Shown: in pieces, positions 11,130 to 34,055 of the stretch | Layout: the number at the start of each line of letters is the position of its first letter | Position numbering within the stretch: position 1 is the first letter of the stretch | Virus record (IMG/VR): IMGVR_UViG_3300038520_001826 | Reading direction: 5' to 3' (one strand) | Source of the DNA: an uncultured virus (IMG/VR IMGVR_UViG_3300038520_001826) | Taxonomy: Duplodnaviria; Heunggongvirae; Uroviricota; Caudoviricetes | DNA length: 64,000 nucleotides | Translations under genes and position numbers: made by a program | Notes under the pieces: generated by a model | What the model was told of the DNA's origin: nothing | Databases searched by the model: none | Seen by the model: only the letters and a program-made list of their open reading frames with translations

Positions 11130-11357
11130 ATGTGGGAAGATATAATTAAACTCAAACGAGAAGAATTTGCAGATGAATTAGTTGAAGAAATAAGAGAAGA
11201 ATTAGGTTCTCTTATTGATGATTTATCCCGTATGCAAATTACAAGAGATGAAGCAGGTAGATTAACAGAAAAACATAGAGTCCGAATTGATGCAAAAATG
11301 ACTGTTCTTTATGCAATTCAGGATTATATTCGAGATGAATTAGAGCCTAGCGAATAA
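11130..11357 (+). CDS. W-tagged small protein (MWEDIIK)
   Basis: AGGTGA RBS; shared N-terminal tag. Confidence 0.8.
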   Translation: MWEDIIKLKREEFADELVEEIREELGSLIDDLSRMQITRDEAGRLTEKHRVRIDAKMTVLYAIQDYIRDELEPSE

Positions 11358-11366
11358 GGTGATATT

Positions 11367-11657
11367 ATGTGGAAAGATGAAATTAAAAAACAGTCAGATA
11401 AAAAAATATCAAACGCATTTAGACCATTACAAGAAGCAATCTTACACTTAGAAGTATTAGGATATGATGTAATGCAAAATGCTATTGATGAACATTTTCC
11501 GATGAAATCGTTAAATGTTGATGCAAGAGAGGTAATGGAAATTCTCAAAACGTATGTGAGCGCATTAATAAACCTTCAATATGTTAGTTCTAAGCCTAAA
11601 GAGTCTGAAACAAGAAGCCCCATTGAAAGTAGAGATACTACATTTTCGGATGATTGA
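11367..11657 (+). CDS. W-tagged small protein (MWKDEIKK)
   Basis: AGGTGA RBS; tag. Confidence 0.8.
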   Translation: MWKDEIKKQSDKKISNAFRPLQEAILHLEVLGYDVMQNAIDEHFPMKSLNVDAREVMEILKTYVSALINLQYVSSKPKESETRSPIESRDTTFSDD

Positions 11658-11661
11658 TATT

Positions 11662-11868
11662 ATGTGGAAAGATACAATTAACAAGAAAAGGTCATTTGAA
11701 AGTGGCCCGACAAGAGAAATGGTTGAACAGGATTTAAATGAATTAACTGAAAATTTAGACTATGCTATGGCTCTTGCTATGAGAGTTAATAAAACAAGAG
11801 ATGCTAAGGAACTTATACAATTACTTCAAAGAGCGCAATACTTAGTAAGTCAAAGATTAAGAAGGTAA
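11662..11868 (+). CDS. W-tagged small protein (MWKDTINK)
   Basis: Start re-assigned to the TGATATTATGTGGAAAGA repeat. Confidence 0.75.
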   Translation: MWKDTINKKRSFESGPTREMVEQDLNELTENLDYAMALAMRVNKTRDAKELIQLLQRAQYLVSQRLRR

Positions 11869-11976
11869 TCATATGACAAGATGCAAATTACTCGACCAAT
11901 GGTTTGATTCAGAATCAAAGCGTTTAGATAAAGAAGAAGAAAAACAAAAGAAAGACTTGATTACAGGTGAGAAAAA

Positions 11977-12195
11977 ATGACTTGGCAAACAGAAATAAGG
12001 AAAAATGAAATTAAGAAGAAAATTGACGCAAATCTTGAAGTGAAGATGAATAAAGCAATTAGTGATATTAACTCTATGATGCAACCTTTCCTTGAAGCGG
12101 GCTTTCTTGATTATGACGAACATCAAATGGCATTTGTTGATATTACAGATAAAATCATGAATAGAATGATGGCTCATGCAACAGACTTGGATTGA
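11977..12195 (+). CDS. W-tagged small protein (MTWQTEIRK)
   Basis: AGGTGA RBS; tag. Confidence 0.75.
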   Translation: MTWQTEIRKNEIKKKIDANLEVKMNKAISDINSMMQPFLEAGFLDYDEHQMAFVDITDKIMNRMMAHATDLD

Positions 12196-12199
12196 TATT

Positions 12200-12370
12200 A
12201 TGTGGAAAGAAATAGTCAAGTATGATGAAAAGGATGTGGCAGACCGCATTCAAAAAACTGGCTATTGTAGAACTTGTAAGCAAATGGTAACTAAATACCA
12301 AAGATGTCCATTAAGATTGCCAGCACCACCTGTTAAACCAAGTTGCCCAATGCGTGAAATGGAGGATTAA
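12200..12370 (+). CDS. W-tagged Cys-rich peptide (MWKEIVK)
   Basis: Tag; CxxC...C...C. Confidence 0.7.
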   Translation: MWKEIVKYDEKDVADRIQKTGYCRTCKQMVTKYQRCPLRLPAPPVKPSCPMREMED

Positions 12371-12372
12371 TT

Positions 12373-12843
12373 ATGAATTGGTTTGATTTACTTAAACTTG
12401 ATTTTGCAGGATATGATGCAAAAGGATTCCTTGAGCATTTGCAAGATACTTTAGGTGGAGATGTTAGTGAAAAGAAAGAAGGTAGCATTAATGTATTTTC
12501 TTTAGATTATGACGAAGGCTACATTAAATTAAGAAGAAGAAAGGATGGAGCATTCTTTGTTATTACACACAAGGGCTCATTTTCAGAAGATAAGAAATTC
12601 AATAAGCCTACTTATAATCTAAAGAAGATTGTAGATGAGTTACTGGATTATTTGCAAGATGCTGAAACTTTTGAGAAGTTTGACATCGATGGTCTTGATT
12701 TTTCAAAGGCTACTCCAGAAGAACAACTTTCATGGTTTAATTCATTAAAAGCGGGGGGTGCAGTAACTACTGCTACACCTGCAATTATTAACGTAAGATA
12801 TTCAAAGAAAAAGGAGGATGAAGAATTTGGTCAAAAAGACTAA
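12373..12843 (+). CDS. W-tagged protein (MNWFDLLK)
   Basis: GGAGG RBS; tag plus internal SWFNSLK. Confidence 0.8.
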   Translation: MNWFDLLKLDFAGYDAKGFLEHLQDTLGGDVSEKKEGSINVFSLDYDEGYIKLRRRKDGAFFVITHKGSFSEDKKFNKPTYNLKKIVDELLDYLQDAETFEKFDIDGLDFSKATPEEQLSWFNSLKAGGAVTTATPAIINVRYSKKKEDEEFGQKD

Positions 12844-13885
12844 AAAGAATGTTGTTTCTTTGAATGGGACTACTATTGAATTTACTCCTTACGAGTTTGT
12901 TACTAATTATAACAAGTGGAAAGAAACTATGAAAGGAGTTTCTGCGGGTTCTATTTATTCGACCAAAGACCTTTATGAAACTGTTGATAGTCATGTTAAT
13001 ACTGCTACTAGAAGAGGAAGGTCTAAAAATTCTGGAAGTAAGGGGGCTTTTACAGTAATTGCCGATATTGAAGAACTAATTATGCAAGGCAAGCAAATTT
13101 TTACAAAAGAAGATTTACAACTATTGAAGAAGTTTGAAGACATACTAGAGGGTTTTCTAGCAAGTCCTACCTTAAATCCACAGAATGTCAAATTTACAAA
13201 GCCTAAAGAATGGAGAGTTAGCAAAGATGGTAAAAGGATAATTATTACTGATGATGACCCTGTTGATTATTATGGGCATTTTGTCGATTTAGGAACAGAT
13301 AAAACTTCTTACTTCCGAGCAAGGAATAAAATCAATGAAGAAACTGAAGGTAAAAAGGGTATTAGTTTAAGCGGTTGGAAAGAGGAGTGGTCAAGTGATA
13401 AAAAGAATACTGCAAAACCCCCACTTTATATGGCACTTTATGAAAAATATGCTGGACAGGATGGGTTATTGCCAATTATTAAAGCAGCCATTAAAGAACT
13501 TGAAGAAAAGGGATATGATGTTACAATTACTAAATTGCGACAAGCAAATAAATTAGCAAGGATTCCTGAAATTAGAAGAGTTATTTCTGGTCTTTTGAAA
13601 AGAAGAGCATTATTTGATGGTGGGGATTTTAAAACAAATAATGCAAGAACTGAACTTAAGAGTAAAGTTATTGAGTTAAGTGAACAATCAGCAGAAAGAC
13701 TTAGCGTTATTCTTTATGGAGAAGTTCTTGCGGGGGATTTAGGCCAAGTTCAATTAGACTTGACAAAACCTGCTATGAAGAGATTAATTGAATTAGCGGT
13801 GGTTACAAGGACTTCTGAATTAAAGGATAGAAAATCACCAAGCGGAGAACCTATTGTTCTTAAATCATGGAAGATGATATTATGA
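12818..13885 (+). CDS. hypothetical protein (head region)
   Basis: 355-aa ORF; ends VLKSWKMIL. Confidence 0.85.
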   Translation: MKNLVKKTKKNVVSLNGTTIEFTPYEFVTNYNKWKETMKGVSAGSIYSTKDLYETVDSHVNTATRRGRSKNSGSKGAFTVIADIEELIMQGKQIFTKEDLQLLKKFEDILEGFLASPTLNPQNVKFTKPKEWRVSKDGKRIIITDDDPVDYYGHFVDLGTDKTSYFRARNKINEETEGKKGISLSGWKEEWSSDKKNTAKPPLYMALYEKYAGQDGLLPIIKAAIKELEEKGYDVTITKLRQANKLARIPEIRRVISGLLKRRALFDGGDFKTNNARTELKSKVIELSEQSAERLSVILYGEVLAGDLGQVQLDLTKPAMKRLIELAVVTRTSELKDRKSPSGEPIVLKSWKMIL

Positions 13886-14382
13886 GTTGGAAAGATATTC
13901 TGAAAGGCGAAGAAGTTCATCCTAGTGTTAGAGGATACATTAAGGATAGAGATACTAAAATTGAAAGACAAAGACCAAAGGATGATAAAACTTTATTCCA
14001 ATTAGATGTTATGAATCGCTTTAGAGATTTTGCTATAAGGGTGATAGGTTTGAATTTTAGTGGAAGAACTGATATGAGAAACGAAAAGGGTGAAATAAAA
14101 ATGCCACTTACCATATCAGTAATACAACTTTTAAAGAAATATCGTAATAAGGAGCATTATCTTGGAGATGCTGAACCTTTTCTTATAACCCCAGCAGAAT
14201 TCATCGAAAAGGAAAGAAAGTTAGCAGAAGTCATTATTGACCAGATAGTAGACACACTTAAGGTATTTCCTAAATCGGAAGATATTGAAGCATACAATCC
14301 CGATGATGGTTATACTCCAAACTTCGTTAGATATGCTAAATCCAAACTTCCTAGATTATCTGTTTCTATGGTAACTGATTGA
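13882..14382 (+). CDS. W-tagged protein (MSWKDILKGEEVHPSV)
   Basis: Tag; extended N-terminus shared with 14393. Confidence 0.8.
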   Translation: MSWKDILKGEEVHPSVRGYIKDRDTKIERQRPKDDKTLFQLDVMNRFRDFAIRVIGLNFSGRTDMRNEKGEIKMPLTISVIQLLKKYRNKEHYLGDAEPFLITPAEFIEKERKLAEVIIDQIVDTLKVFPKSEDIEAYNPDDGYTPNFVRYAKSKLPRLSVSMVTD

Positions 14383-14392
14383 GGTGAATGAA

Positions 14393-14905
14393 ATGAATTG
14401 GAAAAAAATATTGAAAGGTGAAGAGATACATCCTTCTGTTGAAGGTCATGTTGAAAGAGGTCAAAGAGCATTACAAGCATTAAAAGAAAATGTACGTACT
14501 TTGGAGAATACATATAATACTGTACCGCTAAGTCCAAAAGAAGAAAAAGAAATGATGAAAAAAATCAAAGACCTTCACGCTGATATTAACAGACTACAAG
14601 TATATTATGAAAGGCATGGAATGTCTCCACGTTATGATGATAGAAACGTTAAATTTACGAGAGAAAGGGAAACAATAGATGAAGATGATGAAAAGGCTTT
14701 AAGAAGATTAGATAGAAAAACTTCAGATGCATTAGACAAAAGAGTTTTAGAACTTGTAAGGGCAAAAAAGATTACTAATTATGAGAAAGGTCTTTTGTAT
14801 AATGCAATAAATAATGGATGGCGTGATGATTATAAACGCTTAAGGGAACTCGCTAAAGAAATTGGTGTCTCCTTTGACGATGCTTTTACATCTGCAAAAC
14901 AATGA
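14393..14905 (+). CDS. W-tagged protein (MNWKKILKGEEIHPSV)
   Basis: GAGGTGA RBS; tag. Confidence 0.8.
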   Translation: MNWKKILKGEEIHPSVEGHVERGQRALQALKENVRTLENTYNTVPLSPKEEKEMMKKIKDLHADINRLQVYYERHGMSPRYDDRNVKFTRERETIDEDDEKALRRLDRKTSDALDKRVLELVRAKKITNYEKGLLYNAINNGWRDDYKRLRELAKEIGVSFDDAFTSAKQ

Positions 14906-14915
14906 GGTGAATAAA

Positions 14916-15572
14916 ATGGTTACTCGTAAGCGTTGTGGATTTTGTCAGCATGAGGATAGAGAAGAACTTGAATCCATGTTAGAGACAGGACAAACCAGTT
15001 GCGACGTTTTAGACGCAAACAACGGTTGGAGAAGTGGAACTGCGGCACAGCATCAAAGAAACCACATGGGTAATTATGAGATGAGTTCAAATCCTCGATG
15101 CGTTCTATGCACAGACCCTATGAGGAAACACTATGAAATAGCCTTATCTGAAGGTAATATCACAAGTGATGCAGTTTCCGAAGCATTAGGCACAACAAAA
15201 CAACAGGTGCAACGGCACATGAAGCACCACTTAACGCCATTGGTGCAGAAATCTGCGGCCTCCTTGATAGCGAAAAAGGAAGTAAATGAAGTTGATTTAC
15301 TTTCTGCGAATGTCCAACGCTTAGATATGAAATTAGATGAAGTATTCGCTATGGATGATTTAGACCCAAAGGTGATTGATAGTTTGACTAAACTCGCAAG
15401 AGAGATTAGAGAATCATTAAAGTATCTTATGGAGTTCAAAGGTAAATTGGTTCATAAGAGACAAGATACAGTTATTTTCGCACAGATGCAAATTGTTCAA
15501 GAAGTTCTTGCTCAGAACAATCCTGAAGTTTGGCTTGAGATTAAGAAAGAAATGCAGGAGAGGCTACAATGA
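14916..15572 (+). CDS. double Zn-finger/HTH protein with helical C-terminus; probable terminase small subunit
   Basis: Two CxxC...HxxxH repeats (CGFC...HQRNH; CVLC...HMKHH); upstream of TerL; GAGGTGA RBS. TerS call is inference. Confidence 0.55.
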   Translation: MVTRKRCGFCQHEDREELESMLETGQTSCDVLDANNGWRSGTAAQHQRNHMGNYEMSSNPRCVLCTDPMRKHYEIALSEGNITSDAVSEALGTTKQQVQRHMKHHLTPLVQKSAASLIAKKEVNEVDLLSANVQRLDMKLDEVFAMDDLDPKVIDSLTKLAREIRESLKYLMEFKGKLVHKRQDTVIFAQMQIVQEVLAQNNPEVWLEIKKEMQERLQ

Positions 15573-15769
15573 ATTGGAAAGAGGAAATTAAAAAACAAGA
15601 TTCAAAGACGAGTTTAGAAAGTCTGTTGCGAGAGATAAATAGAGATATGCAAAACCTTGACTCAAATCCCGAAAAAGAATATAATTCAAGAATTATTAAA
15701 ATTAAAATGTCAAGTTATAAAGAACAAGTAGAAAGAATTTTACAAAAAATGCAGGAGAGACTACAATGA
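15569..15769 (+). CDS. W-tagged small protein (MNWKEEIKK) flanked by a 28-bp direct repeat
   Basis: Tag; ends MQERLQ like the upstream gene. Confidence 0.75.
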   Translation: MNWKEEIKKQDSKTSLESLLREINRDMQNLDSNPEKEYNSRIIKIKMSSYKEQVERILQKMQERLQ

Positions 15770-16089
15770 ATTGGGAGAATCTAATTAAAAGAAGTGGGAT
15801 GGCATATATATTATTTAAAAATAGAACTGGTAGTTTGCCACCTGACCATGTAATTGAGGCTGGCTACGGAGAAATTGACGGCTATCCTGTTAAAGCATTT
15901 TCTTCATATAAGATTCTATATGATTTTCTATTAAGACAGAAACTTATGGAGTTAGAGCCTAACAATGTAGAAAGTGGGGGAACGCCTGTTTTCGATACTT
16001 ATAAAACTAAAGAATTTAAAGAAAAATTAGGGAAAGAAGGACTTTATGTTGTTACTGTGCCACTTGATACTATGGGGGATATTGAATGA
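15766..16089 (+). CDS. W-tagged protein (MNWENLIK)
   Basis: ATGA overlap; tag. Confidence 0.75.
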   Translation: MNWENLIKRSGMAYILFKNRTGSLPPDHVIEAGYGEIDGYPVKAFSSYKILYDFLLRQKLMELEPNNVESGGTPVFDTYKTKEFKEKLGKEGLYVVTVPLDTMGDIE

Positions 16090-16370
16090 GTTGGGAAAAG
16101 ATATTAAAAAGAGAATCTTGTTGCGAAAATGCTAAGAATCGAGTTAGGTCAATATTTACTGATAGAATAGAAAGAATAAAAAGAGGTGATGGGTTCGGTA
16201 GCATAGAAAATGAGCGTCAGAATATAGAAACTTTAGAAATGCTAGATTGCGATGAATTAAAGGATTATCTAAGATATGAAGTTCGTCGGATGAAGAACGA
16301 CCCTACTAAAGATGAATTGTTATTCAAAGAAATACTAGAAGAATGGAACACTTGTGAAGATAATAGGTGA
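16086..16370 (+). CDS. W-tagged protein (MSWEKILK)
   Basis: ATGA overlap; tag; CC...C...C. Confidence 0.75.
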   Translation: MSWEKILKRESCCENAKNRVRSIFTDRIERIKRGDGFGSIENERQNIETLEMLDCDELKDYLRYEVRRMKNDPTKDELLFKEILEEWNTCEDNR

Positions 16371-16377
16371 AAAAGAA

Positions 16378-18168
16378 ATGAACTGGCAATTCGTCTTGAA
16401 GGCTAGACCTTCTCCTAACACTGTGTTAGTTGAAATTGTTATTGCTTTTGACGAATTATACAATACTCTTAGCAGTGGTAAAATGGGAAGTGCTTCAACT
16501 GGTTCAGGTGTTTTCAAGAAAATGTTTAGGGAAAATCCTGATTTAGATACTAATTTTGAAACAGTTAGAAAAGTATATGGACAATATTCCTTATCTCATT
16601 TTTTGGAACATATTACTGAAAAGGAATTTCTTGATAGATTTTCTAAGGTTAAAGAACTACTTACTCAAAAGACAAAAAGAACCGACTATAATGAAAAATT
16701 TTTCCAAGAACTCTTCTCTTCTAAGAAAAATCCAACAAATATTAAAGAATTGTTGGTAATTTATCAGAAAAAGATTGCTGATAGTGTTCCTAAGCAGACC
16801 CGTTCGGATTATATTAAGAACAATGTAGAAAATACTGCAAGAATTCAGTCATTATACAAGAAAAATCAAGAAAAACCGACAGTTGAGCAATTTAGAAAGA
16901 ACGAAGTGCCTAATTTTGACTACGTTTTGGTGAAAGTGATAGTCGAGGGAAAAGAAAAACCCAAAAAAACGGGCTGGACAACCGATGGAAATGCTTTACT
17001 TAAGGTCTTTGAAGAAAATTCGGACAAAATTGAGTCGGAAGTAGCAAAAATTGACAACGTTTCCGAAACAAAAGTCATTTTTTCACCAATTCGCAAGAAT
17101 TTTGGAGAAAAAACCTCTCTCGAAATAGAAACTACTGCAAAAAACTACAATGCAGTAGAGGTAAATCAAGCAAATATCGCAAATTATCTAAATGTTATTG
17201 AATATTTGCCAAGTGTTAGTAATCTTAGTAAATTAGACAAGCAAATTTTTGCAGTGAACGTTGAGAAAATCAAAAATGTTGGATTATTTGGCAGTAAATT
17301 ATCAAATGTTCGACAATTATTAAGAGAAGTAATTACATCAGAACCACAAGCCCTAATTGCTAAGTTTTCACAAGAACAATTTAAGAATAGGAGAAAATTT
17401 GGACAATATTTCCTACAAGATAAAGGAATTCCAGAAGCCGAACAATCTACTAAACTAGATACTTTTTTAAGGCAATATACTTTGTTAAAAGATAGAGAAC
17501 TCTCCTCTAAAGATTATGAAGAAAAGCCCATGGATGAAAAGATTATTGTTTCCCAAGATGATTTTAGAACCTATAACGAATTTAAAAACGGCTATGATAG
17601 ATTAATGAGAAATGTTCAGCAAGGAACCGTTGATGAGGACTTTAATGAGAAAATAGGAGCATTACCTTTTACTGATTTATTGAAACAAGTCGTTGATGAG
17701 GGAAGAGAAGATGAAACTGAAGTAGTAAGCATAACTCAAGTATCTAATGCCATTAAAACCCTATTGGATAAAACTGATAGGAGTTTCCTCAACATTCTAT
17801 TAATTGTGTCATTTTTAGGATACGGTTCAAGAAACGGTTCTGAAATTTTTAAAGTAATAGATGACTACGAAAGCGAGATGAAGAAAAAAAGAAAGGAATT
17901 AAGAGAAAGGACTAAAAAATGGAGACAAGGGGGAAAACAAGGAAAAAAACCAGTTGCTGAGAACCCTCCTAACAAAGAATTTAATTCCAAACTCGAAAAA
18001 CTATTCATCGAAAATCTAAACGCATTTAAAGAAAAACTATTTGAAGCAGTTAATACTCTATTGCAAGGTATTGCACAAAAAGAAGATGAAAAGTATTTTT
18101 CAATCGCTAACAACAACAAACTTATAAGCAAGTTAGTAGAAAGCAAATTGTTGGAGGAAGCACAATGA
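16378..18168 (+). CDS. large W-tagged helical protein (MNWQFVLK), putative internal virion protein
   Basis: AGGTGA RBS; tag; K/E-rich. Confidence 0.8.
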   Translation: MNWQFVLKARPSPNTVLVEIVIAFDELYNTLSSGKMGSASTGSGVFKKMFRENPDLDTNFETVRKVYGQYSLSHFLEHITEKEFLDRFSKVKELLTQKTKRTDYNEKFFQELFSSKKNPTNIKELLVIYQKKIADSVPKQTRSDYIKNNVENTARIQSLYKKNQEKPTVEQFRKNEVPNFDYVLVKVIVEGKEKPKKTGWTTDGNALLKVFEENSDKIESEVAKIDNVSETKVIFSPIRKNFGEKTSLEIETTAKNYNAVEVNQANIANYLNVIEYLPSVSNLSKLDKQIFAVNVEKIKNVGLFGSKLSNVRQLLREVITSEPQALIAKFSQEQFKNRRKFGQYFLQDKGIPEAEQSTKLDTFLRQYTLLKDRELSSKDYEEKPMDEKIIVSQDDFRTYNEFKNGYDRLMRNVQQGTVDEDFNEKIGALPFTDLLKQVVDEGREDETEVVSITQVSNAIKTLLDKTDRSFLNILLIVSFLGYGSRNGSEIFKVIDDYESEMKKKRKELRERTKKWRQGGKQGKKPVAENPPNKEFNSKLEKLFIENLNAFKEKLFEAVNTLLQGIAQKEDEKYFSIANNNKLISKLVESKLLEEAQ

Positions 18169-20540
18169 CAGCAGAAGAACAACTCAATAAAATTAAGCAA
18201 CTTCCAAACTTAGATGAATTGCGAGAAGAATACGAAGAAGAGGAAGATAAAAACGAATTCATCTTAGTCGAATTTGGTGACTACATAGATGACGCAGGTA
18301 GCGTCGCATCAAGAAAGAAGTTAATTGGAATGATTAACGACCTTATGCGAGAAGGTAGAAGCGGAGTCCAAGAAACTTTTGAAACTAAATCTGTTTTGGA
18401 TGAAATTAACTTTACAGGTATGCAATACAAAGGAGAAGATATTGCAGAAAAGGGAGGAAAACTCAAGGAACAGTTTGTGAGTTTGTTATCTAATACAATT
18501 ATTGATGTAAATAAAATTACAGTCAAGGACTTGAACCCTAGAATTAAACAAAATAAAGAAGCATATAACAATGCTAAACTTCAAGTAGAACAAGTAAAGG
18601 TTGTTAAGGAAAGCAATCTATTAAAGAACTTTATTAACATTTATGATGATTTACTAGATAGACAACAGTACAATCTAGGAAAAAGAGAACTAGATTTAGA
18701 CTTTGATTTATCCGATTTCTTTAGTGCTTCTACTCTAAGGCAACTATCACAAAGGAACAATGTGTATAAGTATTGGAAAGGAATACATGAGAAGATTGAA
18801 GAATTAAAGAAGGAACTTAAAAAAACAGATTTAGTAAAAGATGAAGTAATTGATAACATCAACTATATACATGATTTTAAGAAAGTAAAATTCAACGTTG
18901 ATGCTTTAGAATATAGAGCATACGACTTTGTTAAGTCATATATTGGTCTTGTCTTTGGTTCAGACATTATTGATTTAGATGAAGTTGATGGCGAATATTA
19001 TTTTGCTCAAAGAGGAACAAAAACAGAAGATGGAGATAAGGCTCAAAGTGCAGAAATTGATTCTACTAAAGTTCTATCGACTGAATTGAAGAGAGCGCTA
19101 CAAACTACAAAGGAAATGGATGTTTTAGGGTATTTACATATTGTAACTAACTTATCAGATGGTTCCTATGCTCTTTCATCTGATGAACTCAAGTTACTTA
19201 AAACAAAGATTAAAGACTTATTTAATTCTTATGTCGTTCAATTTGATGATGAGTTTGTAGAGTCAATGAATGATGGACTCAAGAACTTGTTAGATTCGTT
19301 TAAGATTGTAAATACTGCTAGAACTTATCATTACCTTCCAATATACTTTGCATCAAATAAAGAAAGTATGATTCGTTATAAGAATTTACAAATAGGTAAG
19401 GTGACTAAAATTGGGCCTAGACGAGCCACTGAAGAAGCATATACTGGTATTAGTAAATTATTTAACGAAAAAGAAATTACCAACGCAATTAATGAAATGA
19501 TAAAAGCAATTAGTGAAGCAGTTGTTGAAGAAAAGGGAGCAACTCCAATTAATATTAGAGAAGAAGGAAAGGGTGTAGGTAGCGGAGGCCGTGATGCTGA
19601 TAAAGAAGTTTCATTCTATACTGCATCTGTTAGGGGAAAACTAGCAAGATACAAAGATATTGATAAAGAAATGGAAAAGATTTTAAAACTCATTGATGAT
19701 TGTTATATTAGACCATTTAACAGTAGATTTGGGAAGGGAATTACATTAGGGTATGATGAAACGCTATTAGGAGATTTAACTAACAGACCCGATTCTCCTT
19801 TTGCTATTAAAAGACAACTTAATGAAAATTATGTCAAAGAAGGATTAGATTTTATTAATTTAGATGAACTTAATGACATTAAAGAATTTATGATTCTAAA
19901 CAAGCAAATAGAAAGCAAAACTAAGAAGATTGACTTAGACGCACTTAAGAGAGTCTTCTTAGAAATGGCAGATGAAATGGATGACATTATTGATACTTCT
20001 GAAGCAAAGGATTTAGGATTTACAGAAATGATTATTAAAGATATTGCTTCTCTATTCTATCACATAACAAAGGAAGACACTAGTTTTGAAGGGATTAGTT
20101 CAAAGGCTGCATTTGATGAAAGAGGAGCAACAACCTATGATGATTCACACGCATTTAAACAAGTAGTTTATTTCTTAATAGAAAGAATAGACGAGTTTAA
20201 TGCATCGAATATGTCAAGTGAAGCAAAGGTTGTAAAGGACATTAAGAAATTACAAGATTGGTTTGGAGGCATTAAAAAATCTGAAGAAGAAATGCTATTA
20301 CAAGCGCATGACCACATTAGAGTCCTTAAAGGACAAGAAATACATTTTGATGTGTTAGATTACAATGATATTGATGACATGGAATATTTCATTACAAAGA
20401 TGAATAAAGAAAGAAATATTGACTTAAGTTCTATGGAAGTATATAACATTGTAAAAGAATTAGATTCTTTCCAAAATATTTCTAATGAGTATGGTATTAG
20501 CACAGAAGATGTTTATTTAATCAAGGCTAACTTTAGGTGA
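18165..20540 (+). CDS. large acidic protein, putative internal virion protein
   Basis: 791-aa ORF; possible C-terminal HTH (ISNEYGISTEDVYLIK). Confidence 0.8.
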   Translation: MTAEEQLNKIKQLPNLDELREEYEEEEDKNEFILVEFGDYIDDAGSVASRKKLIGMINDLMREGRSGVQETFETKSVLDEINFTGMQYKGEDIAEKGGKLKEQFVSLLSNTIIDVNKITVKDLNPRIKQNKEAYNNAKLQVEQVKVVKESNLLKNFINIYDDLLDRQQYNLGKRELDLDFDLSDFFSASTLRQLSQRNNVYKYWKGIHEKIEELKKELKKTDLVKDEVIDNINYIHDFKKVKFNVDALEYRAYDFVKSYIGLVFGSDIIDLDEVDGEYYFAQRGTKTEDGDKAQSAEIDSTKVLSTELKRALQTTKEMDVLGYLHIVTNLSDGSYALSSDELKLLKTKIKDLFNSYVVQFDDEFVESMNDGLKNLLDSFKIVNTARTYHYLPIYFASNKESMIRYKNLQIGKVTKIGPRRATEEAYTGISKLFNEKEITNAINEMIKAISEAVVEEKGATPINIREEGKGVGSGGRDADKEVSFYTASVRGKLARYKDIDKEMEKILKLIDDCYIRPFNSRFGKGITLGYDETLLGDLTNRPDSPFAIKRQLNENYVKEGLDFINLDELNDIKEFMILNKQIESKTKKIDLDALKRVFLEMADEMDDIIDTSEAKDLGFTEMIIKDIASLFYHITKEDTSFEGISSKAAFDERGATTYDDSHAFKQVVYFLIERIDEFNASNMSSEAKVVKDIKKLQDWFGGIKKSEEEMLLQAHDHIRVLKGQEIHFDVLDYNDIDDMEYFITKMNKERNIDLSSMEVYNIVKELDSFQNISNEYGISTEDVYLIKANFR

Positions 20541-20544
20541 TTAT

Positions 20545-21135
20545 TTGAAATGGTGGAACATTATTAAATTTCATCCTGACCTTAGAAGGTTGGCGGGTGA
20601 TGAAAAAATCAAAGTTGTTCAACTTGGTGATGAAAATTCTATGAAAGAACTTTGGGATGCAAGCAACCCTGATATGCCACACACGCTTCGTTCTAAAAAT
20701 AAATGGCTTTATCCCATAGATAATTGGTATGGAACAATTGTAAATTATGATGAAAATAAAAAACAATATCCTAATGGTAAAAGACGTTTAGTATCTGTAA
20801 TAGGTCATTCCATTAGAAAAGGAAAGAAAGGAAAAGAGTTTGCCTTTGTAGGAGGAACTAAAACTAATCCTTTCTATAGAAGACAAGGTTTGATGAGTGG
20901 AGCAAGAGATAAAAATATTCAAGCGATAGGGGCAAGACCTAAAATTGCTGGATACACTAGCATGGGAAGAAGTTCTTTTTCCGAAGAAAAAAAACCAACT
21001 TCACATGAAATTATACCTGATGAGGTTATAGAATTTATGAAAGAAAGAATAAATAATTTGCCTAATGTTGTAGATTGGGGAATTATTGAATATGACGCTG
21101 CCAATAAAAGCGAAATATGGGAATATATAGAATGA
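20545..21135 (+). CDS. W-tagged GNAT-like acetyltransferase (TTG start, MKWWNIIK)
   Basis: TNPFYRRQGLMS resembles GNAT acetyl-CoA-binding motif A. Confidence 0.6.
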   Translation: MKWWNIIKFHPDLRRLAGDEKIKVVQLGDENSMKELWDASNPDMPHTLRSKNKWLYPIDNWYGTIVNYDENKKQYPNGKRRLVSVIGHSIRKGKKGKEFAFVGGTKTNPFYRRQGLMSGARDKNIQAIGARPKIAGYTSMGRSSFSEEKKPTSHEIIPDEVIEFMKERINNLPNVVDWGIIEYDAANKSEIWEYIE

Positions 21136-21144
21136 GGTGATTAA

Positions 21145-22569
21145 ATGGAAGAGTTTAACTTAGAACATCAAATGGATATGGAGTTATCAAAGAACTCCTT
21201 TCCATATTTTTTTCAACACGTTCTAGGTTTCGACTTTCCAACATACATACAAGAATGGCACGACTTAATGAATGACACACAAAGAACTGTCATTATTTGT
21301 AGTCGTGACCACGGAAAATCGGTATTTATGCACAGTTGGGTTGTTTGGAATTTAATATTTCAACCTCCACCTTATCAGATGCTTTACATTTCATCGAACC
21401 AAAAACAGACAATGGTTCACATGAGAGACATTGATAAAATGTTTCAACATCCACTTCTTAAAAAGTTTAAACCTGCAAGAGGTTGGGCTATTGGAAACAT
21501 TACATTAACGAATGGTAATCAAATCCTTGAGCGTTCTGTTGGTTCACAGATTCGTGGGTTACACCCTCAAGAAATTATTATTGACGACCCTTTGAAAGAG
21601 TTTAGCATAAGCGGTATTCAAAAGGTAACTGATTGGTTTTATGGGGATATGATTCCTACACTTCACCACACTGCATCTTTAAGAGTTATTGGAACTCCAT
21701 TTAGTTATACAGATATTTACAAACAATTAGAAGAAAATGCGGCATATACTGTTAGAACGTATCCTTGTCTCAATGCACTTAATGAACCCTTATGGCCTGA
21801 ACGTTGGGATTATGATGCTTTAATGTCAAGAAAGGCTGAAATTGGTTCACTTAAATTTACAAGAGAATATATGTGTGTGCCTATTTCAACAGGAACATCT
21901 TTATTCAATCCTGAATATTTACAACTGGCTAAGAATAAAGACTTAATCTTAAAACCAAGTAGAAGAGAAGGATATAAATATTTTGTCGGAGTGGACCCTG
22001 CTATCTCTACTGATGGTGACTATAACGTAATTACTGTTCTTGAAGTAGATAGTGAAGATAATAAAAATATTGTTTATATTGACCGTTCTAAAAACGTAGA
22101 GTTTAGGGAGAATATTAACAAGGTCAAACTAATTGGAAAAATATTCAATCCAGAAGTAATACTATTTGAAACAAATACATTCGCAAAGTCATTTACTCAA
22201 GAACTTCGCAACGTCGCAGATTTAAATGTCCATGATTTTAATACTACTCGTAAGAGAAAAGAAGAAGTTATTCTAAATCTACAAATGACTTTAGAGAATC
22301 AGAAAATGAACTTTCCTTATGGTAATGAAGAAAGTCGAAGAGTTACATCAGCATTGGTTGAAGAACTATCAATGTTCGCAATTACAGAACGTGGGAGATT
22401 TGAAGGGATTGGGGCGCATGATGACATGGTGATGAGTTTGGCCCTAGCAAATGCCGCCACCTTTCAAATCACGGATAACTTCATACTCTTGGATGACATG
22501 GAGATATTCGGGAGTTCAAATCGTTCTAACAATCGAGTTAAAATGCCATTTTTAGGCTTGAATTTTTAA
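21145..22569 (+). CDS. terL: terminase large subunit
   Basis: SRDHGKS Walker A, IIIDD Walker B, VIGTP, VGVDPA and HDDMVMSLALA nuclease motifs. Confidence 0.95.
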   Translation: MEEFNLEHQMDMELSKNSFPYFFQHVLGFDFPTYIQEWHDLMNDTQRTVIICSRDHGKSVFMHSWVVWNLIFQPPPYQMLYISSNQKQTMVHMRDIDKMFQHPLLKKFKPARGWAIGNITLTNGNQILERSVGSQIRGLHPQEIIIDDPLKEFSISGIQKVTDWFYGDMIPTLHHTASLRVIGTPFSYTDIYKQLEENAAYTVRTYPCLNALNEPLWPERWDYDALMSRKAEIGSLKFTREYMCVPISTGTSLFNPEYLQLAKNKDLILKPSRREGYKYFVGVDPAISTDGDYNVITVLEVDSEDNKNIVYIDRSKNVEFRENINKVKLIGKIFNPEVILFETNTFAKSFTQELRNVADLNVHDFNTTRKRKEEVILNLQMTLENQKMNFPYGNEESRRVTSALVEELSMFAITERGRFEGIGAHDDMVMSLALANAATFQITDNFILLDDMEIFGSSNRSNNRVKMPFLGLNF

Positions 22570-22579
22570 AGGTGATAAT

Positions 22580-23950
22580 ATGGATTTAAGTGAATTAACT
22601 CCTGAAGAGATTGATGAGGTTGCTGATAATGCAACTGAACAGGCTCGCCTCAAAAGATTATCTCAACAGGCTAAAGAAGAAATGCAAACTTTAACCAATA
22701 AATCTTTTTTGGTTGGTGGTCGAGTCCTTTCAGAATTAGAAGAGATTCACAAAATTTCAACGCATATGAATATCAATGCAACAGAAGCGAGAAAACAATT
22801 AACCTTTCCACAAGAATACAACATTGATGGTCAAACTATTCCTGACCTTGTTAGAAAGATGCGTAAAGCAAGAAGACAATTAAAGGGAGATATGAGAGAT
22901 AAAATGAATAAAAGTATTGACTCTCTCATTGATGGGTATTCTGATTATCTAAACAAGTGCATTGATTCTATGCATTGGATAAGTCCTTACTCCATCCCAC
23001 TTAAGAAAATGTCTATTACAGAAAAAGATTTATTCAAACTTAACAAAATGAAAGATACTACATCAAGAAGAGAAGTAGTAGATGTTTTGTGTAAGTATTG
23101 GGAACTTGATTTAGACCAAAAAGACATGGCTTTTTGTAGAGATTATGCTAAAATTTCAAAGGAGATGAAAGAAGTTAAGAAAGAATACAGGGCCATTCTT
23201 TCTAAGATTAATTCTCAGCAATTGAAAAAGTCTAAGAAAGAACAGGCTAAAGAATTTATTCTTAAACAAATTGTCAATAATCCTGGAATTGGTGCAAAAA
23301 GAATACATGAAAATATGCCCAGTCCATTATACAAATACAGCAATAGTAATATGATTTCTAAAATGGTTAGAAGCATGAATGTTGCTAATTACGAAGGTGC
23401 TTATTACAAAGTTCCATCAATGATGAAGAAAAATATTTGGGCTTATACTGCTGCATTTATTGATTCAGATGGTTATATTACATTAGACCGTAACATGAAT
23501 CCTAGAGTTGGATTAGTTGCAACAGGAGAAAGAGGAAAGGCTTTCATGCAAGAAATGCATAAATCTATTGGATTTGGCAGAATGCATCTTGACCAGAAAT
23601 CACCACAAGATACTCGTTTAATTAACAGATTAAATTTCTATTCACAAGATGACGTTACTGACCTTTTAACAAAGTGCTTGCCTCATTTTAGATTAAAGAA
23701 AGGTAATGCTAAATTATTACTTGAACTTATTCGCATGAAGAAGTCTTACAAGAAAGCCGATTGGTATAAAGACCGTTGCGATGAAATCTTTAAATTAATG
23801 AAGTGGGAAAACCATAAAGACCATGTTGGGTTTGACTGGGCTAAAGAGAATATTTACTTAGATGATATTGCAAAGTTACAAGGTAATTGTAAAATGAGCC
23901 TTATGGATGAATTGGAGAATGTTGGTGGTATTGTTCTTAAGGAGGAATAA
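22580..23950 (+). CDS. LAGLIDADG-domain protein with long N-terminal helical extension
   Basis: WAYTAAFIDSDGYI motif, then GFGRMH and LPHFRLKK typical of the LAGLIDADG fold. Confidence 0.85.
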   Translation: MDLSELTPEEIDEVADNATEQARLKRLSQQAKEEMQTLTNKSFLVGGRVLSELEEIHKISTHMNINATEARKQLTFPQEYNIDGQTIPDLVRKMRKARRQLKGDMRDKMNKSIDSLIDGYSDYLNKCIDSMHWISPYSIPLKKMSITEKDLFKLNKMKDTTSRREVVDVLCKYWELDLDQKDMAFCRDYAKISKEMKEVKKEYRAILSKINSQQLKKSKKEQAKEFILKQIVNNPGIGAKRIHENMPSPLYKYSNSNMISKMVRSMNVANYEGAYYKVPSMMKKNIWAYTAAFIDSDGYITLDRNMNPRVGLVATGERGKAFMQEMHKSIGFGRMHLDQKSPQDTRLINRLNFYSQDDVTDLLTKCLPHFRLKKGNAKLLLELIRMKKSYKKADWYKDRCDEIFKLMKWENHKDHVGFDWAKENIYLDDIAKLQGNCKMSLMDELENVGGIVLKEE

Positions 23951-23952
23951 TT

Positions 23953-24075
23953 GTGGGCTTAGGAAATCATAATTTTATGTATTGTGGTATTTGCTACAAA
24001 GACGGAGATAAACCATTCGGATTCTGTAACTTATGTTGGATTGCTCATGGAAGACCAAAGGGGATGAAAGAATGA
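23953..24075 (+). CDS. small Zn-finger peptide, not in ORF track
   Basis: GGAGG RBS with GTG start; CGIC...CNLC; ATGA overlap with next gene. Confidence 0.55.
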   Translation: MGLGNHNFMYCGICYKDGDKPFGFCNLCWIAHGRPKGMKE

Positions 24076-24404
24076 ATTGGCAAACTATTCTTAAAAAGAA
24101 GAAAAGACACCCTGCATTAGTGAGAGCAGGGGTCAGTGGTTTTAGTAAGCCTAAAAGAATCAAACACAAAACTAAATCTCACATAGTTGTCGTAAAAGAT
24201 GGAGATAAAGTTAAAACAATCAGATTTGGCCAAAAAGGTGTAAAAACAAATCAAACTGCTGGACAGCGAAAAGCATTTAAGTCTAGACACGCTAAGAATA
24301 TTAAACGTGGAAAAATGTCTGCGGCTTATTGGGCAAATAAGGTTAAATGGAGCCCAAGTAAGACTAAAGAAAAAAAGAATAAAAGTTGGAGAAAGGGGTC
24401 ATAA
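24072..24404 (+). CDS. W-tagged highly basic protein (MNWQTILK)
   Basis: Tag; K/R-rich; IRFGQKG...FKSRH...SAAYWA. Confidence 0.8.
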   Translation: MNWQTILKKKKRHPALVRAGVSGFSKPKRIKHKTKSHIVVVKDGDKVKTIRFGQKGVKTNQTAGQRKAFKSRHAKNIKRGKMSAAYWANKVKWSPSKTKEKKNKSWRKGS

Positions 24405-24406
24405 TT

Positions 24407-24526
24407 ATGAAGTGGTGGAATTTTCTCAAAAAATTAACGAAAACCTGTCCTGTTTGTGGACATGAAAATAAAAAAGACGCTAAAAGATGTGCCAATTGCG
24501 GTGCAGATATTTCAGATGTGAAGTGA
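24407..24526 (+). CDS. W-tagged Zn-ribbon peptide (MKWWNFLK), not in ORF track
   Basis: MKWWNFLKKLTKTCPVCGHENKKDAKRCANCGADISDVK. Confidence 0.7.
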   Translation: MKWWNFLKKLTKTCPVCGHENKKDAKRCANCGADISDVK

Positions 24527-24530
24527 TATT

Positions 24531-24740
24531 ATGAAGTGGGAAGAAGTATTAAAAAAGAAAAAGAAAAGAAAATCTACTGTTAATCAATCAGGTAATTATA
24601 CTAAACCTGCACTTCGTAGAAGAATATTCAATAGAATCAAAAGAGGAGATAAAGGCGGAAAAAAGGGCGAATGGTCTGCTAGAAAAGCACAAATGGTTGC
24701 CGCAGCGTATAAACGGGCAGGTGGTGGCTATCGCAATTGA
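24531..24740 (+). CDS. W-tagged highly basic protein (MKWEEVLK)
   Basis: Tag; YTKPALR...WSARKAQ...YKRAGGGY. Confidence 0.8.
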   Translation: MKWEEVLKKKKKRKSTVNQSGNYTKPALRRRIFNRIKRGDKGGKKGEWSARKAQMVAAAYKRAGGGYRN

Positions 24741-25005
24741 GTGGTGGAATATTCTCAAAGCCAAAACAAAAAGGCAAAGAGATTTATCTACTTGGACTGA
24801 TGAAGATTGGGGAAGTGCTGAACAACATAGAGCCAAAGATAAAGGCAAGAAACCTAAATCAAAAACTAAAGGAAGATATATGCCAAGAGCAACCTATAAG
24901 AGAACCGATAAGAAAACTCTTCGCTATCAGGATGCTAAAAAGAGAAAAGGCAGAAAAAAAGGAAAACAACACGTTCCAACAGGAAAGAAGTTTAGTCAAA
25001 AGTGA
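24736..25005 (+). CDS. W-tagged basic protein, probable ATT start (MEWWNILK)
   Basis: GGTGG RBS 8 nt before ATT overlapping the previous stop; tag in register. Confidence 0.65.
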   Translation: MEWWNILKAKTKRQRDLSTWTDEDWGSAEQHRAKDKGKKPKSKTKGRYMPRATYKRTDKKTLRYQDAKKRKGRKKGKQHVPTGKKFSQK

Positions 25006-25010
25006 TTCTT

Positions 25011-25484
25011 ATGCCCATTAGAAAAGTAAAAGGCGGCTACAAATGGGGTAGCAAAGGTAAAGTCTACAAAAATCGTAAAGATGCTGAAAGACAAGCCGCA
25101 GCCGCTTATGCTTCGGGATATGTAAAGAAAGGATGGAAAGAAGTTCTAAAGACCGACCCAAAGAAAGGAACAGGCAAAAAACCCAAAGGTTCTGCTAGAA
25201 GATTATACACAGATGAAAACCCGAAAGATACTGTTCCAGTTAAATTCAAAACTGCAAAGGATGTAAGAGAAACATTTTCGAGTTCATCGTTCAAATCAAA
25301 ACCACATAAAAGACAATCACAAATAATTAACTTAGTTGAACAAAGAGCAAGAGTGGCGGCTAAAAGAGCAAAAGACCCTGAAACAAAGAAGAGATTAAAT
25401 GCAGCACATAAAGTAGCCGAAAGAGCAAAAGAAAAAAGCAAAAGAAAAACAGAAAGTAGAAAAAGAAGCGCTTTTACAAGGTGA
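25011..25484 (+). CDS. basic protein with internal WKEVLK tag (apparent fusion of two units)
   Basis: MPIRKVKGGYKWG unit, then GWKEVLK, then TDPKKGTGKKPKGS unit. Confidence 0.75.
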   Translation: MPIRKVKGGYKWGSKGKVYKNRKDAERQAAAAYASGYVKKGWKEVLKTDPKKGTGKKPKGSARRLYTDENPKDTVPVKFKTAKDVRETFSSSSFKSKPHKRQSQIINLVEQRARVAAKRAKDPETKKRLNAAHKVAERAKEKSKRKTESRKRSAFTR

Positions 25485-25489
25485 TTAAA

Positions 25490-26032
25490 ATGAAATGGAA
25501 AGAAGTATTAAAAGCCCATTGTGGCACAGCACAGAAAACAGATGAAAAGATGCTCTATGGTGGGCAAAAGAAGTTAGATAAAGACAAGGATGGTAGAATC
25601 ACAGGAAAGGATTTTGCTATGCTTAGAAGAGAGAAAAAAAGAAATGTATTAAAGGCTGATATTGCAGGATTAAAAAGGTCATATCCTTCTTTGAAAGGAT
25701 TACCCGACGATGCAATAAGAGAGTTCGATAGAAGGCTTAGTCCTCATATGAGCGCAAGTCGCTTAATAGCGGAATTGAGACAAAAATTTGGGGTAACACG
25801 GAGAATGCCAACTGGTAGGTTTGCTAAAGAAGATATTGAAGAAGAAATTCTTGAAGAAGTAGAAGATGAGGGCGGTGCTTTAGGAATGAAAAACCTAAAA
25901 GATATTGCTGACAAAAAGAAACTTAAAGAAACTCTTTCTTCTATGGAAGATAGAAAGATTATTTTTGAACATGAAGATGGTGACTTCTATACTCACAAGC
26001 CAAAAAGAGAACAGAAAAAGAAAGGTGATTAA
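25490..26032 (+). CDS. W-tagged protein with EF-hand-like loop (MKWKEVLK)
   Basis: Tag; DKDKDGRITGKD. Confidence 0.75.
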   Translation: MKWKEVLKAHCGTAQKTDEKMLYGGQKKLDKDKDGRITGKDFAMLRREKKRNVLKADIAGLKRSYPSLKGLPDDAIREFDRRLSPHMSASRLIAELRQKFGVTRRMPTGRFAKEDIEEEILEEVEDEGGALGMKNLKDIADKKKLKETLSSMEDRKIIFEHEDGDFYTHKPKREQKKKGD

Positions 26033-26434
26033 ATGGATTGGCAAATAATTTTAAAGGAATTGCTTTGCCCTTTGGCAACAAAAAGCGTCTACATAAATAC
26101 TAAAAATAGAGACGAAGCAATAAAAAATAAAAACGTTAAATATGGGCCACTAAATGTAGATGAACCTGCTGATTATTGGGAAAAGATAGCAGAACATTGG
26201 AATACAACAGAAGAGGCGGCTAAAAAATCTAGATGCTCAAATTGTGTTGCTTTCGATATTAGTCCTAGAATGAAAAAATGTATGCCATTAGAGGGCGAAT
26301 TGGGATATTGTTGGATGCATGACTTCAAATGCCATAAAGATAGAAGTTGCTATACTTGGGCAAAAGGTGGCCCAATTGTCCAAGACGAAGTATCTAAAAA
26401 GAATCAAATGAGGAAAGAAGGCAAAAAGGCTTAA
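26033..26434 (+). CDS. W-tagged Cys-rich protein (MDWQIILK)
   Basis: Tag; CSNC...GYC...C...C possible metal cluster. Confidence 0.75.
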   Translation: MDWQIILKELLCPLATKSVYINTKNRDEAIKNKNVKYGPLNVDEPADYWEKIAEHWNTTEEAAKKSRCSNCVAFDISPRMKKCMPLEGELGYCWMHDFKCHKDRSCYTWAKGGPIVQDEVSKKNQMRKEGKKA

Positions 26435-30653: not shown

Positions 30654-31027
30654 TGACATGGGATTTTTACGATACAGGAGAAGATTTTATTCTCAAAGAA
30701 AAAAAAGTAGCAAAGAATCTACTAGATACATTAAGTCCTAAAGAAAGAAAAATATTGAAAAAGAAAGTTCAATCGGCATCACCGACTGAATTCTTTGGAC
30801 AAGACTTTACTAAATTAGGAGAACTTATCGAGTCTTTAAGAGAAATCAATTTTATTAAAACAGATGATAAGTTAAAAAAGAAAATGAAATCAATGGATGA
30901 AAGGAATATTGATATAGTTGCCACAGCATCCAAACTTCGTAAGGAGTATGAGTTGCTCTATCGTCAATTGCGAGATTTAGTTTATCCACCAAAGAAAGGA
31001 GAGAAAAAAGATGACAGAAAAGAATGA
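30653..31027 (+). CDS. hypothetical protein
   Basis: TAATG coupling; MTWDFY...FILKE. Confidence 0.75.
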   Translation: MTWDFYDTGEDFILKEKKVAKNLLDTLSPKERKILKKKVQSASPTEFFGQDFTKLGELIESLREINFIKTDDKLKKKMKSMDERNIDIVATASKLRKEYELLYRQLRDLVYPPKKGEKKDDRKE

Positions 31028-34031: not shown

Positions 34032-34055
34032 CTGAATTACAAGGAGTTGAAGGAC

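Follow-up and report, generated by a model that had tools for sequence, protein, structure and literature searches.

A short N-terminal leader on unrelated proteins of a magrovirus lineage resembles the C-terminal tail of the scaffold

Why do many otherwise unrelated proteins of one virus begin with the same short peptide? The question is raised by a 64,000-nucleotide stretch of DNA from an uncultured tailed virus (IMG/VR record IMGVR_UViG_3300038520_001826), the whole of which was analysed and is called the window here. Between positions 11,130 and 26,434, most open reading frames (ORFs) on the + strand start with a leader, or tag, of the type M-[SNT]-W-x-[DEN]-I-L-K. The window is a magrovirus, as judged by comparing its gene content with that in Philosof 2017. 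The leader is probably a removable label for loading proteins into the capsid, analogous in its logic to the capsid targeting sequence (CTS) of T4 and copying the C-terminal tail of the scaffold of the same virus.

In this interval 19 of the 26 + strand ORFs are tagged, 15 with W-x-x-h-h-K (h, hydrophobic) and four with the variant W-x-x-[ET]-I-[KRN], in which E or T replaces the first hydrophobic residue; the untagged ORFs start at 12818, 14916, 18165, 21145 (the large terminase, TerL), 22580, 23953 and 25002. All 19 genes that the original prediction listed are tagged, with two corrections to its list of starts. Inspection of every listed start places the strict leader M-x(0-1)-W-x-x-h-h-K at 14 of them (Table 1), four having only the variant form, and position 24736 is an ATT, which is not a start codon. 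The gene encoding IEWWNILK there may start at GTG 24721 or 24724 or at TTG 24697, and most likely begins at one of the two GTG codons. Internal copies were also predicted in two proteins; that in the protein described as starting at 25011 is borne out (GWKEVLK), and that in the 12373 protein is present in a weaker form (SWFNSLK). The recurrence exceeds chance: the DNA pattern ATGNNNTGGNNNNNNATHYTNAAR has five matches against a shuffle mean of 0.02, and the pattern TGGNNNNNNRTHNTNAAR has 18 against a shuffle mean of 3.5, with neither count reached in any of 100 shuffles.

The leader was followed in the best 80 (L001–L080) of 184 TerL matches in the viral collection, which have 82–99% TerL identity and many of which come from contigs of 90–97 kb; with the window they make 81 sequences and 1.46 Mb. 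The strict leader starts 493 ORFs of at least 30 residues on the coding strand and one on the other, and a simple gene call finds 566 of 1836 + strand ORFs tagged. When the first ten residues were removed and the bodies were clustered (BLASTP, 1e-5), 194 of the 344 clusters held a tagged member, 167 were tagged throughout and 111 were tagged singletons. Core genes are never tagged (TerL 0/81, portal 0/78, the ligase protein 0/66). The expectation that terminase and portal proteins lack the leader is thus correct for TerL and the portal; the small terminase (TerS) was not identified, and the gene in its usual position (20545) is tagged.

Across 563 non-identical instances the logo reads, in per cent, M72-[S35 N19 T10]-W100-[K28 E20 Q19 F12]-[D33 E18 N17]-[I75 V17]-[L75 I18]-K100, where the values of 100 for W and K are an outcome of how the instances were selected. 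Conservation is absent after the tag Lys. In 10 of 11 families with at least eight tagged members each, conservation is higher at the four key positions of the tag than in the body, a result that the regular expression used to call tags somewhat favours. Selection acts on the leader peptide and not on the DNA, since the Leu and Lys codons are free, the distance from Met to Trp varies, and 107 in-frame internal copies have no start codon nearby. The Leu of the leader uses all six codons, with 0.00 bits at the third position; its Lys is AAA or AAG in a ratio of 72/28 against a background of 68/32; and zero, one or two residues separate Met from Trp in 61, 474 and 81 cases, respectively. These codon data also contradict conservation purely as a DNA signal for initiation, which the original prediction had named as a way for it to fail.

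It is accordingly very improbable, and already largely refuted by the codons, that the peptide is a by-product of a nucleic-acid element, either a translation-start context or a boundary for cassette exchange. Such an element would agree with the hypervariability of the tagged slots, with a Shine-Dalgarno-like GGTGA ahead of many starts, and with the lean of codons 2–4 towards A/T endings (AGT is 82% of Ser codons against a 23% background, and AAA is 97% of Lys codons at +1 against 68%). That lean fits ordinary start-proximal bias, which leaves the Trp unexplained. The element would also have to accommodate the freely varying I-L-K codons, the variable ATG-TGG spacing, the internal copies and the recurrence of the peptide at two C-termini described below.

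Many of the internal copies lie at domain junctions of fused proteins. A 693-residue protein in L057 has tags at residues 181 and 368, and its parts are separate tagged genes elsewhere; the 25002 protein is a fusion of a 45-residue N-terminal module with a body that starts at the tag in relatives. In relatives, 16 of 108 members of the 20545 family are tagged, and others have an internal tag at a domain junction. The fusions indicate that the peptide is retained when it is no longer N-terminal.

The bodies behind the leader are unrelated, as had been predicted. They range from 39 to about 800 residues and match three PHROGs, a Zn ribbon, a soluble PAP2-like phosphatase and pentapeptide repeats. 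The Zn ribbon, which the original prediction had named, is the 24407 protein; the GNAT-like and EF-hand-like bodies named beside it were not confirmed, because Pfam shows no GNAT match for 20545 and the EF-hand_7 match of 25490 is sub-threshold (E 0.0079, 17 bits against a cut-off of 30). Among 140 representatives of tagged bodies, 137 had no Pfam match at E 1e-4; the three matches are the PAP2-like phosphatase, the pentapeptide repeats and DUF6943, whose score falls just short of its cut-off. Transmembrane-like segments occur in none of the 194 tagged clusters and in 17 of the 150 untagged ones, some of which may be false ORFs.

Comparison with homologues in other viruses shows that the tag is grafted onto bodies that existed before. 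In three basic proteins the PHROG profile begins just after the tag: residues 10–93 of 24072 match phrog_7595, residues 8–68 of 24531 match phrog_17747, and residues 9–89 of 24736 match phrog_14910. Searches with tblastn found homologues of the basic proteins in cultured marine bacteriophages; the two whose starts were read are untagged. The Celeribacter phage homologue of 24072 starts MPSKKK (MPSKKKDPRLDRAGVSGY, against MNWQTILKKKKRHPALVRAGVSGF in the window), and the Methylophilales phage homologue of 24531 starts MATPKK (MATPKKKSTVNKAGNYTKP, against MKWEEVLKKKKKRKSTVNQSGNYTKP). Untagged homologues and profiles that start after the tag together indicate that the leader was added to pre-existing bodies. 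They also make it the least probable of the explanations weighed here that the tagged proteins are diverged paralogues of one small ancestor, recognisable only at the N-terminus. Some sub-families do share the tag followed by [VF]-x-P-x-x-[FWY], in stand-alone genes and in fused modules; a single ancestor is, however, at odds with bodies that belong to different families and differ so widely in length.

The three basic families (24072, 24531 and 24736; net charge +19 to +32) form a cassette of very basic small proteins at 24072–25005. The cassette is common to cultured marine podoviruses of Roseobacter, SAR11, Methylophilales and Puniceispirillum (L086, 6013–6282; L087, 5708–6430), keeps the same overlap, ...GGGYR(N/G) and stop, with the next gene, and lies just upstream of the terminase gene in the Methylophilales phage. 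The 24072 body weakly matches the PHROG 'minor head protein and DNA pilot' (E 4.4e-5). A term search of a virion proteomics report (PMC4819975) found nothing on homologues of the basic proteins.

The location of the tagged genes was analysed in G001, the closest complete relative (90,867 bases, 98% TerL identity, direct terminal repeats). On its structural strand 18 of 75 ORFs are tagged, against 0 of 71 on the other strand (Fisher p 2.7e-6). Within the structural strand, the tag is on 17 of the 36 ORFs between the beginning of the block and the capsid gene, and on 1 of the 24 past that gene, on the connector and tail side (p 3.7e-4). The head genes therefore carry the motif more often than the others; equal frequency was a result that the original prediction had set out as counting against it. 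Four complete relatives have six, seven, seven and seven matches to the leader's DNA pattern, on one strand each, and none to reversed-pattern controls. Gene order is conserved across the relatives, and the hypervariable tagged genes occupy fixed positions among the core genes: around a Zn-finger protein and upstream of it, from a protein of about 800 residues to TerL, from a 456-residue core protein to the portal, after the portal, and among the small head genes before the ligase. These positions show that at least the tagged genes in the stretch from terminase to protease are embedded in the head module.

A profile was built from 437 leaders and scanned over the 17,890 8-mers of the + strand ORFs of the window. 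Ranks 1–14 are leaders and internal copies, and the best peptides that are not tags, at ranks 15 and 16, are the C-terminal tails of two head-module proteins. The first is the fused protease-scaffold protein, which ends in AEMDWSDIHKMVGGY and has MDWSDIHK (nucleotides 35277–35300) five residues from its end; the W, D, I and H in it do not vary in 46 of 46 relatives. The second is an 80-residue protein that ends in SMDWSEIHKMVEKVG, with MDWSEIHK eight residues from its end and the tail kept in 52 of 59 relatives. The two have M-D-W-S-[DE]-I-H-K-M-V in common. In all six frames of the window, M-x-W-x-[DEN]-[IVL]-x-K has only eight matches, which are five leaders, the two tails and one short − strand frame.

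By an exhaustive search of representatives, the nearest other lineages are 39% and about 35% identical in TerL, and in them this leader fades. It is nearly absent in the 39% lineage, where W-x-x-h-h-K starts 18 ORFs on the + strand and seven on the − strand (80 loci, L312–L391, 1.05 Mb). The same loci have a related leader, M-x(1-6)-[AK]-F-[DE]-x-[AG]-W-x-[VIL]-[VLA]-K (for example MTAFDQAWSLVK), 33 times on the + strand and once on the − strand; it starts a few genes per virus. In the 35% lineage the leader was not found on the + strand of five loci.

The end of the leader recurs elsewhere in the head module. Leaders end in [DEN]-I-L-K, and a broader form, [DENST]-[IL]-L-K, also stands at the N-terminus of the capsid protein and where the protease domain ends. 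Among the 16,751 residues that G001 encodes on its + strand, [IL]LKQ is confined to residues 26–29 of the capsid protein and the S78 domain end, and both sites are invariant in 46 of 46 relatives. In the window, the capsid protein has the invariant N-terminal G-N-x-[LI]-L-K-Q (LLK at nucleotides 35395–35403), and the protease has F-D-I-L-K-Q where its domain ends (ILK at 34554–34562); the 39% lineage has GTDLLK/ADSP and NPEASYTILK/MDE at the corresponding places. Prohead proteases usually trim the N-terminus of the capsid protein and separate the protease from the scaffold. A motif common to the leaders and these usual cut places fits a putative cleavage after the Lys. A further candidate tag, F-x-I-L-K at the protease N-terminus (R-N-D-D-F-S-I-L-K), was rejected, as it coincides with the start of the S78 domain.

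The match to two canonical prohead-protease sites, together with the end of conservation at the Lys, would also suit a mere N-terminal propeptide, that is, a signal for processing or turnover by a viral or host protease with no targeting role. We consider this quite improbable. A cut site alone leaves the invariant Trp five residues upstream unexplained, and the leader resembles C-terminal tails, which cannot be propeptides. Prohead proteases, moreover, work inside procapsids, and cutting by one would itself imply enclosure.

In the mechanism that we propose, the leader would act as a portable address label, read at the protein level, of one magrovirus lineage. In a short helix its W, I and L would share one face; as a copy of the scaffold tail M-D-W-S-D-I-H-K, the leader would dock tagged proteins at the scaffold-tail site inside the assembling procapsid. 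In other phages the C-terminus of the scaffold holds the capsid protein, and by that analogy the docking site would most likely lie on the major capsid protein, at its inner face. Docking would enclose some 18 soluble proteins per genome, a set that varies. The S78 prohead protease would cut after the terminal Lys, and likewise at L-L-K/Q and I-L-K/Q (slash, putative cut), freeing the cargo, which would pass into the next host cell together with the DNA. The original prediction likewise described a portable label that loads variable cargo into the head, with the Lys as cleavage site. Its portability and its tie to the head agree with the grafting, the scaffold-tail likeness, the recurring h-L-K end and the head-side location; the packaging, the cleavage and the binding partner are steps that we infer.

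Several observations weigh against this mechanism. At the place of Leu or Ile in the leaders every tail has His, a residue found there in 1 of 482 leaders; this constancy indicates that leaders and tails are alike but distinct classes and not interchangeable copies. Four scaffold tails of the 39% lineage (L-[DE]-x-W-[RK]-A-x-E) lack a clear register with the leader of that lineage. The residues of h-L-K are common ones, and the protease copy lies in the last strand of the S78 domain and may be kept for folding alone. The internal copies indicate that a free N-terminus is not required. About 18 cargo species per genome, some of 600–750 residues, are many for one capsid. The long rightward gene block begins, at its 5' end, with the first tagged block (11130–18168), which could consist of early genes. 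A predicted complex of the capsid protein, the protease-scaffold protein and the tagged 69-residue protein scored 0.01 against a mark of 0.32, and weighs neither way.

Part of this evidence would suit a leader that docks to some other common partner, such as the portal, the prohead protease, the virus chaperonin or a host hub protein, and involves no packaging. The motif looks like a short amphipathic docking helix (W, I and L at i, i+3 and i+4), it also works internally, the first tagged array could be early, and G001 carries a GroEL-like gene (cf. Philosof 2017, PMC5434244, in part). We nevertheless regard such a partner as unlikely: none of the 71 ORFs on the replication strand is tagged, the tagged genes are inserted among the terminase, portal and protease genes, and the top matches other than tags lie in the tails of two head proteins, the scaffold and a small one. 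A host partner also agrees poorly with the archaeal control, in which the motif is not enriched. Of 151 archaeal genomes from the phylum to which the host bin of a distant relative belongs, 46 have any match to the pattern and none has more than five, against six or seven per virus of about 90 kb, which argues that the motif is not a common cellular signal in those archaea.

That distant relative (33% TerL identity, without tags) was one of three TerL loci in contigs of cellular genomes, the others being a mis-binned fragment and a weak match. At L303, a 5.3-kb piece of this virus group (TerL 91% identical over 175 residues) sits inside a metagenome-assembled genome of Maricaulis, and its placement in this bacterial bin is most likely a binning error. 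No close cultured phage was found, TerL identity being below 60% in all 285 matching phage records. Among the matches listed, viral contigs with the leader's DNA pattern are mostly large ones (many about 90–100 kb) or ones from the TerL scan. A term search of the main texts, in part, of three papers on magroviruses (PMC5434244, PMC11706807 and PMC10160649) and a library search found no mention of the leader; their supplements lie outside this search.

The closest known parallel to capsid loading is T4, whose prohead protease removes the CTS at a motif that is also used in the capsid protein. According to part of PMC3012670, the CTS sends internal proteins into the scaffolding core. As in T4 (IPI–III, Alt and the polymorphic internal-protein loci of the T-even phages), we found one short N-terminal leader as the sole shared part of diverse, fast-changing and otherwise unrelated proteins encoded among the head genes, and the magrovirus h-L-K end is likewise common to the capsid protein and the protease. 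The differences are that the magrovirus host is archaeal, that far more genes per genome (about 18) are tagged, that the leader resembles a copy of the scaffold C-terminal tail, and that internal copies stand at domain junctions. The T4 leader also differs in sequence from W-x-x-I-L-K, and the likeness is taken as one of mechanism and not of family. Packaging and cleavage have been shown for T4 and are proposed for the magrovirus leader.

The proposed use of a scaffold tail has its own parallel in phage 80alpha, whose scaffold gp46 and the SaPI1 protein CpmB share a C-terminal capsid-binding helix and compete for a site on the capsid (PMC5644958, in part). The magrovirus scaffold and the second small helical protein similarly share a terminal peptide, kept at the frequencies given above. 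Unlike in 80alpha, a look-alike peptide stands on about 19 more N-termini and a satellite element is not involved. Encapsulin cargo-loading peptides, which fix unrelated cargo by a short terminal peptide to the inner face of an HK97-fold shell, are alike in placing such a peptide on unrelated cargo; they differ in serving cellular compartments, usually with one or a few cargo types and with neither a protease step nor DNA packaging. In the giant phages phiKZ and SPN3US, the prohead protease cleaves many proteins of the head interior at one shared motif (PMC7411985 and PMC10052503, each in part), but their propeptides are long and not a shared eight-residue label, and their hosts are bacterial.

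Magroviruses and their hosts are uncultured, and most magrovirus genes are without known function. About one in five genes of one strand carry the leader, which offers a testable handle on roughly 190 orphan families; if it is a loading label, it marks orphan proteins that travel in the virion, that is, first-strike proteins against the host. Such a label would also carry a mechanism known from T4 over to archaeal viruses, and would exemplify the origin of a label as a copy of a scaffold tail. We advance tentatively, at slightly short of an even chance, the broader idea that the capsid-binding tail of the scaffold has been turned into a general address code, by which M-x-W-x-D-I-L-K proteins are enclosed, freed by the protease and delivered, so that each virion carries about 18 strain-specific, pre-made effectors; these would be, for example, counter-defence proteins. 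If this is true, the body families in the 81 sequences, more than 190 of them, form a large and unexplored collection of effectors that archaeal viruses inject, and capsids of these viruses could be loaded with the tag as it stands. A test of the label does not need the uncultured host: the capsid protein, the protease-scaffold protein and fusions of the tag to a reporter would serve.

As for the wider genome, part of Philosof 2017 (PMC5434244) gives a ligase within the structural module, a chaperonin, a tRNA-Leu and archaeal-type replication genes as marks of magroviruses, notes a ligase of the kind encoded here, assigns these viruses to marine group II archaea, and reports them among the most abundant archaeal viruses of the surface ocean. 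All four marks, and a genome of about 90–100 kb, were found in the window and its relatives taken together. The morphogenesis block of a tailed virus occupies the + strand of the window from about 11 kb to 58 kb; the − strand flanks carry replication and repair genes (a UvrD-type helicase, an ERCC4 nuclease and a Cas4-like nuclease), and tRNA-Leu is encoded in the window as well. Besides its GroEL-like gene, G001 has an RFC-like one (N-termini judged by eye for both). The features of the window are collected in Table 1.

Table 1. Tagged, tag-related and core genes of the window (aa, amino acids; nt, nucleotide position; strict, M-x(0-1)-W-x-x-h-h-K at the start; variant, W-x-x-[ET]-I-[KRN]).
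Position	Strand	Feature	Leader or related peptide	Match
11130..11357	+	ORF, 75 aa, acidic	strict, MWEDIIK	
11367..11657	+	ORF, 96 aa	variant, MWKDEIK	
11662..11868	+	ORF, 68 aa	variant, MWKDTIN	
11977..12195	+	ORF, 72 aa	variant, MTWQTEIR	
12200..12370	+	ORF, 56 aa	strict, MWKEIVK	
12373..12843	+	ORF, 156 aa	strict, MNWFDLLK; weaker internal copy SWFNSLK at nt 12733	
13882..14382	+	ORF, 166 aa	strict, MSWKDILK, top match to the tag profile	
14393..14905	+	ORF, 170 aa	strict, MNWKKILK	
15569..15769	+	ORF, 66 aa	variant, MNWKEEIK	
15766..16089	+	ORF, 107 aa	strict, MNWENLIK	
16086..16370	+	ORF, 94 aa	strict, MSWEKILK	
16378..18168	+	large ORF, 596 aa	strict, MNWQFVLK	family not found in Pfam, PHROG or ESM Atlas
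20545..21135	+	ORF, 196 aa, just upstream of TerL	strict, (M)KWWNIIK, TTG start	
21145..22569	+	large terminase (TerL)	untagged	Pfam Terminase_6C, 28.4 bits against a cut-off of 22.6
24072..24404	+	basic ORF, 110 aa, net charge +32	strict	
24407..24526	+	Zn-ribbon ORF, 39 aa	strict, MKWWNFLK	Pfam Zn_Ribbon_1, E 7.8e-8
24531..24740	+	basic ORF, 69 aa	strict	
24721..25005	+	basic ORF, overlaps the end of the preceding gene	IEWWNILK at nt 24736–24759	
25002..25484	+	basic ORF, 160 aa	internal, GWKEVLK (nt 25134)	
25490..26032	+	ORF, 180 aa	strict, MKWKEVLK	
26033..26434	+	Cys-rich ORF, 133 aa; 25/26 family members tagged	strict, MDWQIILK	
26475..28112	+	portal protein	untagged	Pfam Phage_portal, 44.6 bits against a cut-off of 39.1
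28353..30653	+	766-aa protein after the portal gene	degenerate, tag-like N-terminus MMHRIILK	
31011..31253	+	80-aa helical head-module protein	C-terminal tail MDWSEIHK (nt 31203–31226)	
31507..34008	+	833-aa protein with ATP-dependent DNA ligase domain (residues 247–432), between the portal and protease genes		Pfam
34047..35318	+	S78 prohead protease fused to a scaffold-like C-terminal half; gene also given as 34056..35318	C-terminal tail MDWSDIHK	Pfam Peptidase_S78, 40.2 bits against a cut-off of 21; PHROG, head maturation protease
35320..36654	+	major capsid protein		Pfam, PHROG
45363..45983	+	tail tube protein		

Positional counterparts of the 28353 protein in relatives begin MSWKAVLS, MWKAIIAK and MFIELLK. 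ESM Atlas gave no usable match for this protein or for the 596-residue 16378 protein, and of 24 proteins, conserved or large, from this region and from relatives, only an HMGL-like protein of one relative has a Pfam match above the cut-off. AlphaFold2 models were unusable for the 26033 family (predicted local distance difference test, pLDDT, 36; 24 rows) and for the capsid protein (pLDDT 33; 46 rows).

A conserved 124-residue head-module protein at 30653–31027 (73 relatives) has the N-terminus M-T-W-D-[FY]-Y-x-x-G-x-x-F-I-L-K, which resembles the leader with a seven-residue insert separating W from I-L-K. The 456-residue protein directly after TerL (22580–23950) was found in all 82 sequences examined and has a weak PHROG match to an HNH endonuclease (E 2.1e-5); its presence throughout and the weakness of this match make it look like a core protein and not a mobile endonuclease. 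Between this protein and the portal, eight loci (L012, 3613–4494, and seven others) carry an untagged HMGL-like gene of the pyruvate carboxyltransferase type (Pfam E 2.1e-25).

The last codons of the 12818 gene (…SWKMIL and stop), just upstream of MSWKDILK, are alike to it at the DNA level (13861–13905), and may be a trace of duplication or recombination at the tag. The window contains three runs of ten N (5681–5691, 7689–7699 and 45262–45272), the last of which separates the ORFs 44330–45310 and 45363–45983, which are a single ORF of 547 residues in G001.

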